From a virus (Duplodnaviria > Heunggongvirae > Uroviricota > Caudoviricetes), in the IMG/VR virus record IMGVR_UViG_3300029571_000007, positions 1-19,006 of that record: a DNA stretch of 19,006 bases. One strand, 5' to 3'. How positions within the stretch are numbered: position 1 is the first letter of the stretch; every line of letters starts with the position of its first letter. Both the position numbers and the translations under genes were made by a program. Below, one piece after another: positions 1 to 6,275 of the stretch. The notes below the pieces were generated by a model. That model was not told the origin of the DNA. It worked only from the letters and a program-made list of their open reading frames with translations, and did no database searches.

Positions 1-458
1 TCACTTAGAGGATGGGTATGTCGTTGGGGATTGCTCTCTTATATAGTTATTCTCTATATATGACCTTTCATTTCTATATATGGTCAACATTAAAAATGTA
101 GAGTACCGTCCTGCTCGTTGCCCGTTATTAATGATACTTAGACACCTATCAAGTCTCCTCGATATTTTCATATATCCACATATACAATTTTTTCTGCTTT
201 CGCAACCTCATCCAATATAACCATATGGATTACGGTTTGTTATGTGATCCGTGGGTAGTTTGTTAAGCTACCAAGCATTCAAGCATTTACTCCTCCATGT
301 AATAGTTTATACTCCGCTAAAGTGTTTGCAGAGTTTTTATTAAGAATCCCATGTATCCATAGATTTGATTGTAACGCCATTATGTTATTCTCTTATCTAT
401 GATTGACCAACTAAAAACTGTTGGAGAGAGTTTTTATATAAGGTTTGAAAACCCAATC
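1..458 (-). ncRNA. Group I intron 2 in the tape measure gene (5' part; 3' end lies outside the window)
   Basis: Minus-strand core pairings. P1: exon UUUAUUAAGAAUUUU (473-459) with GGGAUUCUUAAUAAA (350-336), ending in U.G pairs. P2: ACUCUGC/GCGGAGU. P3: UGGAGGA (297-291)/UCCUCUA (12-6). J3/4 AAA. P4: UGCUUG (285-280)/CGAGCA (117-112). P5: UGCUUG (277-272)/CGGGCA (124-119). P6: GGA/UCC. J6/7-P7: CCA-ACGACAUAC (about 27-16). The exact 5' splice site (after 461, 460 or 459) is uncertain. Confidence 0.8.
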
Positions 459-1094
459 AAAATTCTTAATAAATTTAAAGATACCTGTACCAGCACCACC
501 GATACCGATAACAGTTGGTAATACACCAAATTTGTCAATAAGTTGATCTAGTACATGGATTGCTCCTGTACCAAAATCAACTATACCCTTCAGAAAATCA
601 GAGCTTACCAAGTCAGACTCAAGTTCTTGAAGTCTATTCTGGAATTGTGCTACCTTGGCATCAAGAGATTCCATGTAAGAGTCAAGTTCCTTCATTGCCG
701 CTCCGTCTGCGTCAAGTGCAGAATTGTACACAGACTCTAACATTTCTGGGTTGAGCAGGATACTAGAAGCAATGTTGGATCTGTTCTTACCTGCAATAGC
801 CTCTACTAAAGCATTTGCTCGGTTTGTTCCAGCCTTTTTATCTTCTTCTTGAATCTCTTTATAGACCTTGGCGATGTCTAAAAGGATATCATATGTATTA
901 CGGAGATTTCCGTTAGCATCTAAAACATCTACACCTTGATATGCATTAGACGCAACAGCAGTATAATCTTTGATTATTTGCTGTGTTTTTGAACTGGTTT
1001 GTACAACAAAATCATCTACATCTTCGCCTAAAGAAGCTAATTCATCTTTCGCTTCTTCAGTTCCTGCGAGTCGCAGACTAATTGTACGAACACC
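459..1094 (-). CDS. Tape measure protein, exon 2 (about 212 codons, GVRTISLRL...FKFIKNF)
   Basis: Joining 3336 to 1094 is in frame and gives ...DVSKTAG|GVRTISLRLAGTEEAK, followed by typical TMP core motifs (GNLRNTYDILLDIAK, EAIAGKNRSN, SLDAKVAQF) and a hydrophobic segment. The listed ORF 411..1118 includes intron sequence at both ends. Confidence 0.88.
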
Positions 1095-1153
1095 CTTTAT
1101 GTTTGATACAAGTCGCAACTCTTGTATCAGATACTATTATATTATTCTCTTTT

Positions 1154-2725
1154 TTATGATACTTCTTGTAATATATTTAAGTCTAATAAGTTATCAAATA
1201 AAAAACATTCAATATTATTCTTTTCCCAATATGGAATACGAATTAATTGAATGTTTTGTTCTTTACAATATTCAGTTTTTATTTTGTCGTGGGATTGAAC
1301 TAATTCAAATGCTCTATTTAGTTCTTCGTCTGACATTTTACCATTCCAATTAACAGGCATATAGTGTTGTTCACCATCGTATTCTATGGCAACATTATAG
1401 TCATTAAGATAAAAATCAAATGGAAGAGTATTTATATCCTTGCAATCATCAAATCTTTTTTGACGTTCATATTTAAGCTGAAATTTATCCAATATTTTTC
1501 CTACATTGTTTTCAGAATTGGAAGCATTGCAATTTGGACAACCAAATCCAGTCATCAAGTTATATGCAAGCGGTGTCCATTCATGTCCACAAGTTCTACA
1601 TCTGCATTCAATTCGTTCACCAGCTAATGTGTATTCGCCTGTAATTTCAATATTTGGTAATTTCTCTTTTATAATTTCTTTAAATTCATCTGTAGTTCTA
1701 AAATATCCGTTACAATATCTACAACAACATTTTGAAGATTTTATATTATGAAATGGTACTTTTTGGATACCTTTATCAATATGATTTTTACACAAGAAAG
1801 ATATTACTGTATGCCCATTGACAACTTCTCTATCTTTATAAATATACCCATGAACATCTTCTACATAATATTTATATAAATCATCATCAATTAATTTTGT
1901 GCATCTATCATTTTCATACATACACATTGGACAACATAACGATTCTTTATATAGAAAAGAAGAAGGAGCTGCTTCAAATTCATAATTATGTTTTTTACAA
2001 TAAAACTTCATTTTTTCTTTAATATTTATATATTCAGACAATATATTAATATTAGGATTTATCTCATTGATTTTTGCATACACATCTTCCTTGTTTAACC
2101 CAAACTTTTCTCTGGCTTTCTCTAATTGGCATTCTTCACAATTGGTAGCACCTTTTAATAATGTATGTATTTGAATTTTCCATTTTGTATCATGTTTTTT
2201 ACAACGGCATAAAATTTTATTATTACTTCCTGTATATTCACCTAACACTTCAATTTCAGGGGATACTTCTAAAACTTCATTTATGATATCTTGGGTTGTT
2301 TTTCTACCTCTCGAATCCCATCGTTTTACATGTCCGCATATCTTACATCCATTACCATATAATAAACATGAAACAGTGCCATCCCATATGTGACCACATA
2401 CCTTACATTTACATTTTACCTTTGTGTTCCAATTCTTATACTCAGATAATATTTCAATATCTGGATTTATAATAGTCATTTCCTCTTTAAATGTCTCTTT
2501 TAATTTTGAATGATTACAATATTGACATGGCTTTTTATTCTTACCTATTTTTTCAACAGGAATCCATTGTACTCCTTTTTCTTTATGTTTATTACATAAA
2601 ATACAAGCACAACGTCTATTTTTACCGTTTACTTCTTTATTATCTATTCCAACTAAAATTAAATCTTTTTCATTACATAATTCTTTTAAATATTCTGTTG
2701 TATATTTCAATTTACTATCACCCAT
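1154..2725 (-). CDS. Intron-encoded homing endonuclease: six Cys/His Zn-binding repeats plus a C-terminal Vsr/DUF559-like (EDxHD-type) nuclease
   Basis: Repeats of the form INPxIEILxEY...CxCxx(C/H)...CxxC. C-terminal motif LPFDFYL...AIEYDGEQHY...HDKIKTEYC...LIRIPYW. RBS GAAAGGA upstream. Lies inside intron 1. Confidence 0.85.
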   Translation of the reverse strand: MGDSKLKYTTEYLKELCNEKDLILVGIDNKEVNGKNRRCACILCNKHKEKGVQWIPVEKIGKNKKPCQYCNHSKLKETFKEEMTIINPDIEILSEYKNWNTKVKCKCKVCGHIWDGTVSCLLYGNGCKICGHVKRWDSRGRKTTQDIINEVLEVSPEIEVLGEYTGSNNKILCRCKKHDTKWKIQIHTLLKGATNCEECQLEKAREKFGLNKEDVYAKINEINPNINILSEYINIKEKMKFYCKKHNYEFEAAPSSFLYKESLCCPMCMYENDRCTKLIDDDLYKYYVEDVHGYIYKDREVVNGHTVISFLCKNHIDKGIQKVPFHNIKSSKCCCRYCNGYFRTTDEFKEIIKEKLPNIEITGEYTLAGERIECRCRTCGHEWTPLAYNLMTGFGCPNCNASNSENNVGKILDKFQLKYERQKRFDDCKDINTLPFDFYLNDYNVAIEYDGEQHYMPVNWNGKMSDEELNRAFELVQSHDKIKTEYCKEQNIQLIRIPYWEKNNIECFLFDNLLDLNILQEVS

Positions 2726-2748
2726 ATATTATCTGTTCCTTTCTAATT

Positions 2749-2916
2749 TTACGCATAAAAAATCGCCAGTAGTTTAAATAACTCTGACGTTTTCGTATAC
2801 TTATATGTAGTTACTTCATTTATTTCTTTTACAAAAGATGGTTTAATACCATGTTGTAATAAATACTCCTTTTCAGGAGAAAATTGAGTTGAATACTCCT
2901 TATCGAATTTCTTCAT
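2749..2916 (-). CDS. Small 55-aa intron-borne hypothetical protein (MKKFDKEYSTQFSPEKEYLLQHGIKPSFVKEINEVTTYKYTKTSELFKLLAIFYA)
   Basis: Not in the ORF track (below its length cutoff). ATG at 2916 is preceded by GAGGAATAAAAGGA, TAA is at 2751-2749, and it ends just upstream of the endonuclease RBS. Confidence 0.7.
   Translation of the reverse strand: MKKFDKEYSTQFSPEKEYLLQHGIKPSFVKEINEVTTYKYTKTSELFKLLAIFYA
2757..2789 (-). terminator. Terminator-like hairpin inside intron 1, at the end of the 55-aa ORF
   Basis: CGUCAG-AGUU-loop-AACU-A-CUGGCG followed by AUUUUUU. Confidence 0.45.
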
Positions 2917-3335
2917 TCCTTTTATTCCTCATGTATAATAGTATCTCTCTACCTTTCGGAAGAGTAACAGATCATGTCTTATTCCCTTGCTATGCATTAG
3001 GGAACATACCTTTTCCATTTGACGGGTTCTCACCGACTTCATTTGCGATTAAGCCGTACTTCTTATGATTCAGATATTCAGGATTTCCACCTTTATTCAC
3101 AAGTCTGAATCTCCTCATCGGAGAATGATCGTTGAGCGTTTACCCTCGACTCAAGTACCGTATGGTCTACGGGATACGTTAGGGTACTTCGTTGCAAACA
3201 AGCCATTGTAATATCTCTAATTTTTGAATCCATCATATAGTAGTTTCCTCTATATTGTGGCATAGAGCTTTAGGCTGCCCTTGCAGTTAAATATGTTCTA
3301 TAAAATATATTTCTATATCTTTCAGGCAATGTTTC

Positions 3336-6275
3336 ACCTGCGGTTTTAGAAACGTCCTGTGTTATGGCATTACCAGCAGTAATAAGAGCTACACTTTCAG
3401 CAAGATCGTTGCCTTGAGTTTTTAATACAGCAGCCGAATCTTTCAATGCTGTTGAAAGTTCATTGGTACTGATACTATACTCGTTGCCGATTTTATCCAG
3501 GACATCAATAATTTCCATTTTGTCAAGCTCTTTATAAGCTTGTGACATTGCAACTAATGAATCCGTTGCTTCATCAATATTTTCAAATTCTGATACATTT
3601 AATAAAACTGTTGCATCTTTTGCCGATTCCTTGGCTTCATCTAATGACTCACCAAGACGCATCCATGTTGCTGTGGCATCCTGTAATGCGAGAGCAGTAG
3701 TACCAACCGAGTCAGCGGTAGAAAAACTTTCTTTCTGAAAATTCTTTAATGACTGTGCAGATTCATTTGACACTTTACGCATTTCGGTATATGCAGTATC
3801 TAATTCTCTAACAGTAGAAGCAACCTGTTTCAATCCATTAATAACATCATAAACACCAAACATTCCTGCCATCTGAGCAGCAATCTGATGGAATCCGCTA
3901 TTCTTTAAAGTGTCAAAGAAACTTTTACCAGCACGACCAGCTTCGACTTCAGCATTATAAATCTTCATGATTTCGCCATGAATTCTATCCAAACTCATGC
4001 TAGGATTACCACTTTCAATTTCTGCATAGTAAGATTTAATCTTAGCTTTTGCTTCAGAAGACATTTTACTATTTTCATTGAGAAGCTTGTGAATCTTGTC
4101 TAATTCTTTCTGAGCCGATACAAAGTTATATCCCTTCTCAGAAGCCGACATATTAGTAACAGTAGCGATAGTATCTTTTATTTTCTTTTCATACTTATCT
4201 AAGTTCTGAATATCCTCATCACTAGCGATACCATTTTGATTAGTCTTTATATTGTCCAGAAGAGTTGCGTACTGTTTAACCGCATCATGTACAGCTTGCA
4301 CATTTTTTAAATATGTATCACTTGTCCAACCACCATCATTAAACCTTGCAATAGTGGCTTGATATTTATCAACCTTACCATTGTAAGAATCTAACTGTTT
4401 ATCATATTTATTAAGGTTTACATTGGCATTCTGTTCTTTTTGAGCGTTTGCAAGTTTTTCGGTTTCATCAACTACTTCTTTGACATTACTTTTGACACTC
4501 TTTAACGCAACGCTTGTTTTTTCGGCAGAATTAGATGTAGCTTTACCAAAGTTATCAATGGCATCTTGTGCAGATTTAAAGGTCTGAGTAACAGAAGAAC
4601 CTGCGTTCTCAACATCTGTCAACTTTTTAGTAATGGTTACAAATTCACTACTATCAACCTTGATAGAATACTCATCACCAAGATTTAAACTATTCTTGAT
4701 TTTCTGAGCCTTATCTAAGGTTTCTTGATATGTAAGAGCAGGAGCAGTTTCACGACCAAAATTCTGTAATGCCGTTTCTAATTTATCTACACCATTTGTT
4801 ACAGTCTTAAAACGCTGTTCAAAAATATTACCATCAGCATCGACTTTTGCGGAAAACGATTTCCATGCGCCATCAGCATCTTTTATTTTTGCACTTACCT
4901 TTACAAGACCATCAACAAGCTCTGTGTTTACAGTTTCACCAAGAATTGTATATCCAGAATTTGATAATTTTTCATTAATTCTATTAGGAGAGTAATTTAA
5001 GAAATCTTCTTCAGATATTTTCCTTCGTTTTGCGTATCTATCCTTTTTAGGTGGATTAGGTGGGTTTGTATTTCCAGATGAAATATTCGATTCTTGTGGA
5101 GTAGAGGAGAGGTTGGATTTCATTTCTGCAAATTCACTGTTAAGTTCTTTTACAGATTCCTTTGTCTTTTCAACATCATCTCGTACATTTTCAAAACCAT
5201 TCGATTCAATAGAAGAAATTCTATCTTTTACATCACCAAGTTCAGTTTTTACCTCTTGAATATCAGATTTTAACTCTTCAATTTGAGAATTATTTGAATT
5301 AGAAGTATTAGAAACTGTTTCCTTTTGAGCTTCTGCTAATTTCTGTTCTGCTTCAGCAGTAGCAATAGCCTGTGTCTCTTCTTGTTTTAATGATTCAATA
5401 TATTTTTTATTTTCGGCAATAGCATCTTCTTTTGCAAAGTCAAGATACATATTTGCAAGGTCTTTATCCGAATTGATATCTTCGCTTGAATATCCAAATA
5501 ATTCTGCATCTTTTGCTCTGCTTTCTGCAACTTCTAACATCCTAACATATTCTTCAATGTTTTTTGTGATTTCAGGTGTAATTGGCGCATCGCCTAAATT
5601 AGCCTTCACTTTAGAATAAGCAGAATTAAATTTCAAAAGCCGATTCTCTAGTGATGTGATTTCTGCAATTAAATTACTTTCATCTGCATTACCATACTTT
5701 TGAAAATTTTCAAAGTCTTTAATTCTATTTCCTACGATTCTCTCTTTACTGAAAAATGAATCGTTTACATCAAAATCAATAGTTACTTTTTCTAATTTAC
5801 TTTGTGCGACACCTTTTCGCAATGCTTCTTCATAGGCTTTGTAGTACGCATAACCAGCCTTTGCACCTGCATTGGTAGCCATTGCTTCTTCATTACCATA
5901 ATAGTCTTTAAAAGCATCTGCATATTTTTTTAACTGGTTATAAGCATCTGTCTTATTTTTGGTATTAAATGATAAGTCAATTCCTTTTGATAAACTAATA
6001 ATCTCATTAATCTTATTCTCTAATTTATCAAATGTCTGTAGCTGTTCTTTTAATCCAGAATTACCAAACTCGAATGTGAACTTGTCTAATTTGAGTTTCT
6101 GCAATTCCTTAATTTTATCAATTACTTTATCATCTTTTGCATCTAATTGAATTGTGATTTTTTGTTTACCAGCTTTATTACTAATACCATCGAATACACC
6201 ATTTGTTTCCTTTTCAAATTGTGCAAGACTAGCTCTATAATCAAAACCAATCTTAATAATATCTGAATTAGCCAT
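3336..6275 (-). CDS. Tape measure protein, exon 1 (980 codons)
   Basis: Long coiled-coil ORF with TP901-type core motifs (VRELDTAYTEMRKVS, ATATWMRLGES, VLLNVSEF, DKIGNEYSIST). RBS GAAAGGATGTG. The last 21 residues of the listed ORF (3270-3335) are intron read-through. Confidence 0.9.

Follow-up and report, generated by a model that had tools for sequence, protein, structure and literature searches.

Group I introns of phages are regarded as selfish passengers that carry a nuclease at most. In prophages of the Bacillus cereus group, the tape-measure (TMP) genes contain the group I introns TMP-IVS1/2/3, which the accessible part of that report describes as IA1/IA2 (PMC2504315). In the canonical arrangement given in the available text of two further reports, the P10 strand sits in the loop of P1, directly 5' of the G in the internal guide sequence (IGS); a terminal G precedes the 3' exon (PMC3984707, PMC6155759). 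Trans-spliced group I introns of organelles, in the portion of the literature compared here, have their breakpoints in L8, in L9 or downstream of P9.1, at the sites of ORFs in cis-spliced relatives (PMC3873408).

We analysed a window of 19,006 nt, the whole stretch of gut-phage DNA under study, in which a TMP gene is interrupted by two introns. The first-pass annotation had placed the second of these, intron 2, in a group I-like class, and this assignment was borne out by a co-varying P1 and P8, by P10, and by a terminal G in relatives.

The tape-measure gene and its interrupted site

The TMP intron region lies on the minus strand at the extreme end of an 83-kb linear phage contig, which stops at base 1 of the window and cuts off the core of intron 2 there. 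Exon 2 is followed by structured RNA up to the contig end (Table 1). A circular continuation of the contig was considered and rejected, as there is no terminal repeat and the other end is unrelated. Positions 1-490 are 100% identical to the relative L003, which supplies the missing downstream part; P8, the 3' strand of P7, the cargo and exon 3 are visible only in relatives. Two relatives sit inside contigs of 0.97 and 1.86 Mb, which suggests that the phage is temperate. Among annotated phages, TMP relatives were distant ones only. The interruption accounts for the annotation of such tape-measure genes as short fragments. Near the far end of the contig (G000 C1 80392-81864), a 490-codon ORF resembles, as judged by eye, a TnpB/Cas12f-type nuclease.

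Table 1. Features of the TMP gene and of intron 2 in the window
Feature	Positions	Strand	Basis or detail
TMP exon 1	3337..6275	-	PF10145 match
Intron 1 of the TMP gene, with 523-aa endonuclease ORF (2725-1154)	1095..3336	-	PHROG 559, E 5e-85
TMP exon 2, ending ...FIKNFD; predicted 5' splice site after U456	456..1094	-	PHROG 4211 positions 775-953
Exon strand of proposed exon clamp (15-bp helix minus its two outer U.G pairs)	461..473	-	folding and homologue alignment
Exon strand of P1, UUGAU, with U.G pair at end	456..460	-	5 pairs, 100% of cells paired, 2 double-sided changes
Small hairpin at 5' end of intron 2	442..453	-	4/5 pairs change on both sides
P10 guide, complementary to first 21-26 nt of exon 3; contains in-frame TAG 413-411	408..433	-	duplex scans in relatives
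Hairpin 424-420/411-407, putatively masking guide 3' end and IGS G	407..424	-	pair probability 0.86-0.89
IGS, GUCAA	403..407	-	co-variation
Insertion separating IGS from clamp strand, with a hairpin (387-372) and a GAUA-tetraloop hairpin (362-349)	349..402	-	alignment
Intron strand of proposed exon clamp	336..348	-	folding, 14-homologue alignment
P2	312..333	-	folding
Ribozyme core, truncated by contig end	1..297	-	P3 297-291/12-6, P4 285-280/117-112, P5 276-120, P6 from 111
P7 5' strand within 26-17; G22 is the predicted guanosine-binding G	17..26	-	folding

Searches with exon 2 yielded 82 loci, and the site of intron 2 is nearly fixed among them: the frame stops near this place in 74, runs through uninterrupted in 3, and ends or breaks earlier in 5. 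The 71 loci with enough DNA fell into 12 sequence clusters, and most of these roughly 12 intron families at one tail-gene site carry recognisable group I-like motifs. The family of the window, family A, comprises 72 loci (37 + L211 + 34, with the chance matches L215 and L227 dropped); the loci are close kin, and some are present in more than one collection, which makes counts within the family overstate independent events.

The boundaries of intron 1 fall at 3339-3336 and 1095-1091 of the minus strand, and intron-less relatives read G-[LVI]-R-T there. For a terminal G to be possible, exon 1 has to end in A or G (3339-3337) instead of at the U.G pair, and the 5' splice site of intron 1 is odd. 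In phiCD211, a TMP intron is annotated near the intron-1 site. A 25-nt direct repeat (88% identical) links position 379-403, in the P1 insertion of intron 2, to 1136-1160, at the end of the intron 1 endonuclease ORF; a 9-mer common to both copies occurs four times in the window, with 0.67 expected. The motif at 393-385, 55-47 and 1150-1142 was considered as a second-intron fragment and rejected, since its counterpart in relatives is mostly an antisense terminator tail read in reverse.

P1, a proposed exon clamp and the ribozyme core of intron 2

The 15-bp helix 473-459/350-336 had been read as an unusually long P1. The pairing is present on the minus strand, where 473-462 and 347-336 form 12 Watson-Crick pairs; three U.G pairs, of U461, U460 and U459 with G348, G349 and G350 respectively, can follow. 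The helix is part of the MFE structure (z = -2.1; 4/200 shuffles equally good), and 29.5% of 200 block-shuffled windows contained a perfect 12-bp inverted repeat whose arms lie close together (3 observed against a mean of 0.57); taken alone, the long helix is only modestly above chance, which is weak evidence. Across 14 homologues, 97% of its cells are paired, with one double-sided change (462:347). At 473-468, one of the six pairs is invariant, and four of the five variable ones are disrupted in one or two sequences. Conservation of the exon DNA sets in at about 473, upstream exon alleles being different. The co-varying P1 is another helix, 460-456/407-403, which closes with U456.G407 directly 3' of the guide and gives a junction in frame, NFD|QLK. 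The check for exon/IGS co-variation among homologues thus gave one double change for the long helix and double changes in 2/5 pairs for P1 (14 sequences, all paired), the latter coming from two divergent loci, L220 and L243. ViennaRNA gave this P1 a probability near 0 even with the guide held open and preferred the fold of the first-pass annotation.

That earlier fold, which takes the 15-bp helix for P1 and puts the cut at one of the three U.G pairs (461-459), gains from the place of the helix in the MFE structure, from the outer two U.G pairs being unchanged in 14 homologues, and from a cut after 459 being likewise in frame. We nevertheless consider it very improbable, because the P10 guide abuts G407, 57 nt from G350, and not G348-350, because the double changes lie in 460-456/407-403, and because position 461 takes part in a C-G or U-A pair instead of U.G with 348 in two of the 14 homologues. 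In addition, other families at the same site have the identical order of exon U.G, guide, IGS, hairpin and clamp-like strand. The long helix therefore does not act as the internal guide in our interpretation, and its three U.G pairs do not offer three alternative splice sites: two of the three Us (U460 and U459) are part of P1, and cuts after 461 or 460 are out of frame with exon 3.

We propose that the long helix is real but shorter, 8-13 bp, and acts as an exon clamp stacked on P1. Its outer U.G pairs (460, 459) compete with P1 and with the GAUA-tetraloop hairpin 362-349 (probabilities 0.41 and 0.28). The clamp adjoins P1 on the exon strand, and both could stack as a 13-18-bp helix with a 54-nt insertion on the intron side. 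Within this insertion, folding prefers an alternative helix, 401-395/364-358; a homologous hairpin with a varying stem is found in families B and C. The same layout recurs in families B, C, I and E, each with its own P1 and guide sequences, and clamp-like pairing is weak in families B and C (-1 to -9 kcal/mol). Co-folding with exon 3 was unable to display clamp and P10 jointly, as both cross. Folding places the IGS G within the hairpin 424-420/411-407 in the free RNA, and counterparts of this hairpin are drawable in L220 and L243. Binding of exon 3 would open the hairpin, which hints at splicing gated by the 3' exon.

Several helices had also been drawn within the loop of the long helix. GGUUU/AAACC was supported, as 4/5 pairs change on both sides. 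GAUUG/CAAUC, which crosses CAUAGAU/AUCUAUG, does not stay paired in divergent homologues; CAUAGAU/AUCUAUG and CCAAC/GUUGG are nearly invariant in the homologue alignment, which neither backs nor refutes them. A role for ribosomes terminating at the stop 413-411 found no backing: the TAG is present in frame, but the stop position is not conserved among relatives, falling at 225 versus 230 codons in close relatives, 6 codons past the splice site in L211 and directly at the splice site in L243.

In the core, the P7 partner predicted earlier (like GUAUGUC(U)) is absent, and the look-alike segment is part of P8 and varies with P8. Six of the 11 P8 pairs change on both sides in relatives; for P8 and two 3' hairpins together, 12/24 pairs are double-changed, with contributions from the divergent L211 and L284. 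P2 to P6 adopt the folds expected of them, and a P4 variant in L284 preserves pairing, as read by eye. If P7 is read contiguously, the guanosine-site G stands opposite G or A. A C-U behind two inserted hairpins (52-55 nt), present in 72/72 family-A loci and in L284, would restore a G-C pair, and it is plausible that P7 is split by these hairpins; the split-P7 pairs never vary among family-A loci. Family G (L041, L044, L046, L048, L054 and L056, at about 6070-6140) has a complete standard P7 followed by the same two-hairpin tail. P9.0 is common, though not universal, in group I introns; no conserved P9.0 strand was found in family A, where bases -2 to -10 vary among 15 flanks. Families B and C keep a P9.0-like 5-mer and have shorter guides, from which we infer a trade-off between P10 length and P9.0.

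Rfam searches of the window, six loci and G000 returned nothing relevant; RF00028, a model that helps detection and does not define the class, was unmatched, and intron 1 goes undetected by it as well. Loosening the core pattern recovered a single new member, L211, together with five chance matches. In family I (L063-L072, at about 5600-5900), P1 and P10 are clear and no group I core was recognised in the RNA.

A long P10, a distant exon 3 and variable cargo

In relatives, the exon is followed by about 500 nt of RNA and by a stretch of 2-6 kb in which variable genes occupy both strands; behind it lies a long ORF without its own start. The in-frame TMP exon 3 with a preceding terminal G, which had been predicted, was located there, starting 2.2-5.8 kb downstream, beyond the cargo. 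The expectation that the intron tolerates insertions was likewise correct in substance, with the difference that the cargo stands after the core and not inside the P1 loop. The guide/exon-3 duplex reaches -30 to -32 kcal/mol with the exon 3 of four relatives, and P10 is here about three times its usual length.

The guide was scanned, with no G demanded, in the 70 of the 72 family-A loci that are long enough. One clear target was obtained in 51/70 loci, each of the 51 is preceded by G, and in 49 the frame of exon 2 stays open for 200 codons or more. No clear target was found in the other 19, most of which end too early or have a first-base mismatch; inspection revealed G-preceded starts in five further loci (L097, L230, L234, L211 and the record of L284), and the best guide site of L220 opens only 12 codons. 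The 29 nt upstream of the terminal G differ among 15 distinct flanks and have a G content of 3.7%. At 36/50 sites, 20-21 of the first 21 nt are paired (G.U counted), and L229 has a compensatory guide/exon change. Predicted family-A introns span 2,226-5,835 nt, that of L003 being 4,327 nt; the spliced TMP of L003 would have about 2,770 aa. The exon-3 starts lack an in-frame ATG upstream in 42/50 cases, and 14 have a stop directly before them; among nine 21-nt exon-3 alleles, the commonest differences are synonymous.

Exon 2 and the exon 3 of L003 match successive parts of PHROG 4211, 775-953 and 957-1564. In the uninterrupted TMPs L081 and L045, sequence resembling exon 3 of families B, D and I follows the exon-2 part, and the family-A exon 3 matches uninterrupted TMPs weakly (E 0.002-0.008). 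Other intron families at the site have their own matching guide/exon-3 pairs, with the unanchored duplex scan being decisive for families A and I only. For the 10-12-nt guides of families B and C, blind scans were not above background, and their junctions rest on ORF-restricted scans in which many loci returned a wrong ORF or none. The diagonal of a guide-swap table is biased, as sites were picked by guide score, and is given little weight. The cargo of L077, L080, L091 and L095 contains a decoy-like partial guide match with C instead of G in front. In some relatives, a further standard-looking group I intron lies inside exon 3 (L110, oriented, at about 13,700).

Toxin-antitoxin, TIR, restriction-type and regulatory genes form a hotspot within the intron. 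Nine cargo proteins chosen by eye comprised PemK/MazF (2), TnpB, TIR, GmrSD, Bro-N/antirepressor, HTH, ToxN and a weak zinc-ribbon family. Some introns of families B and C are about 950-1,020 nt long. The loci L008-L014 and L001-L007 have 99% identical exon 2 sequences and differ in intron family and exon-3 allele. Intron, cargo and the start of exon 3 are swapped as one module.

Terminator-like hairpins on the sense strand were found in 40/43 distinct cargos (86 sense and 91 antisense in a crude scan run with no shuffle control), and the idea that cargo avoids sense terminators was rejected on this count. Directly behind the ribozyme, L003 has a perfect sigma-70 promoter. An antisense sigma-70-like promoter overlaps the 3' splice site in most family-A flanks (L003 9930-9965 and equivalents); one matching at least 9 of 12 consensus positions was present in 19/20 flanks, and in 16/20 the -35 box is made up of the terminal G together with the opening bases of exon 3. 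In the same 20 flanks, sense promoters within 45 nt of the site matched the consensus at 8 of 12 positions at most.

Possible modes of splicing and comparison with known systems

We think it probable that the window contains the 5' end of a group I intron that splices in cis, directed by its guide, across the cargo from a long read-through transcript. Visible in the sequence itself are the complementarity of guide and exon 3, the G that precedes exon 3, a junction in frame, the co-variation of P1, P8 and two 3' hairpins, and the cargo; the following scheme adds a predicted reaction. Guanosine would attack after U456, the exon being held by P1 and by the stacked clamp helix (473-461/348-336), which would offset the long P1 loop. 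The long P10 would replace the missing P9.0 and bring in the far-off terminal G, and P7 would be completed by the C-U behind the two inserted hairpins. Late transcription would pass the cargo terminators, and the outcome would be a site within an essential gene for the free exchange of defence-type and regulatory genes. With terminators in nearly all cargos, such read-through requires antitermination. In temperate phages, antitermination carries the transcription of late operons through extra genes that bring a promoter and a terminator of their own, and for this reason we favour splicing in cis over splicing in trans.

Trans-splicing, possible through the P10 guide and not through the long helix as had been suggested, would have the transcript of exon 2 and ribozyme stop in the cargo, with the guide capturing a separately promoted exon 3 RNA that gives only the terminal G. 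The sense hairpins of the cargos agree with this, as does the promoter behind the L003 ribozyme, by which the cargo would be transcribed separately; G is also the sole conserved base before exon 3. Moreover, the duplex of about -30 kcal/mol far exceeds a natural P10, which involves exon nucleotides 2-8, and a stronger P10 helps engineered trans-acting ribozymes, according to the accessible text of PMC6155759. Against it stand the lack of a sense promoter in the 20 flanks, where the promoter present is antisense, the unchanged order and strand of the exons wherever exon 3 was located, and the short versions in other families, and we regard trans-splicing as a rather unlikely, if serious, candidate. 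A search of three wastewater runs for exon joints, made against L001, found none; the contigs were sparse and short, and the RNA status of the runs is a guess. It is tentatively conceivable, at the same level, that a phage ribozyme builds an essential mRNA from two transcripts, holding its 5' exon in the clamp, remaining masked until a second RNA pairs with a programmable guide of 21-26 nt, and requiring no more than a single G from that RNA. If true, trans-splicing would occur naturally in a bacterial virus, the guanosine-binding helix being split, and two-transcript assembly would explain the modular swapping of tail-gene halves and defence cargo.

A further reading dispenses with splicing: the TMP would be made as two proteins, and the RNA would be either a relic or a regulator acting by pairing with the mRNA of the second gene. 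The absent Rfam match and the non-standard P7 fit it, as does the terminal G being the G of an in-frame ATG at many B/C loci; the first bases of exon 3, which double as the antisense -35 box in most flanks, could be conserved without splicing. Yet most family-A exon-3 frames lack an upstream ATG, the promoter consensus prefers T and not G at -1, B/C alleles with ACG retain the G while losing the ATG, P1 co-varies, and the two TMP parts are consecutive in one profile, all of which makes this reading improbable.

The near-fixed site, the dozen or so families and the cargo hotspot suggest a domesticated intron that houses cargo within an essential gene and allows the exchange of gene halves. A 21-26-bp P10 without P9.0 is the design that engineers use for trans-splicing. 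Its natural occurrence here offers a system in which 3' splice-site selection over long range or in trans can readily be tested, and the element is a possible scaffold for RNA ligation tools.

No published description of long-P10 cargo introns was found in the openly accessible literature searched. Like TMP-IVS1/2/3, the introns described here occur several to a TMP gene, with different ones at one site and with P1 and P10 adapted to the site; unlike them, they hold more than a homing endonuclease, and the available text on TMP-IVS1/2/3 mentions no multi-gene cargo, long P10, clamp or split P7 (PMC2504315). The self-splicing group I introns of Bastillevirinae likewise reside in essential phage genes, self-splicing being predicted in our case, but measure 802 +/- 342 nt on average and carry nuclease ORFs in the portion of that report compared (PMC11878797), as against 2,226-5,835 nt here. 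The order of guide, IGS and terminal G is the canonical group I arrangement (PMC3984707, PMC6155759, as far as their accessible text goes), whereas a natural P10 is weak and covers about exon nucleotides 2-8 (PMC6155759), compared with 21-26 nt in family A, which has no conserved P9.0 strand. In the accessible account of IStrons, a group I ribozyme is likewise followed by about 1.5 kb of protein-coding DNA and then by the 3' splice site, but that cargo is one IS element (PMC4227781), whereas here it is a variable 2-6 kb on both strands, with TnpB in some loci. Identity with IStrons was rejected, since the cargo varies, TnpB was 1/9 of the scanned cargo proteins, and the 3' end is the promoter region of an antisense gene. 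The cargo occupies a 3' position equivalent to the breakpoints of organellar trans-spliced introns; the latter are bipartite in the available description (PMC3873408), whereas the phage parts are collinear and the downstream part contributes only a G. Measured against the portion of the literature compared, intron 2 is a variant of a group I intron that combines a P10 of about 20 nt, multi-gene cargo, a proposed exon clamp and an apparently split P7, a combination not met in those systems.
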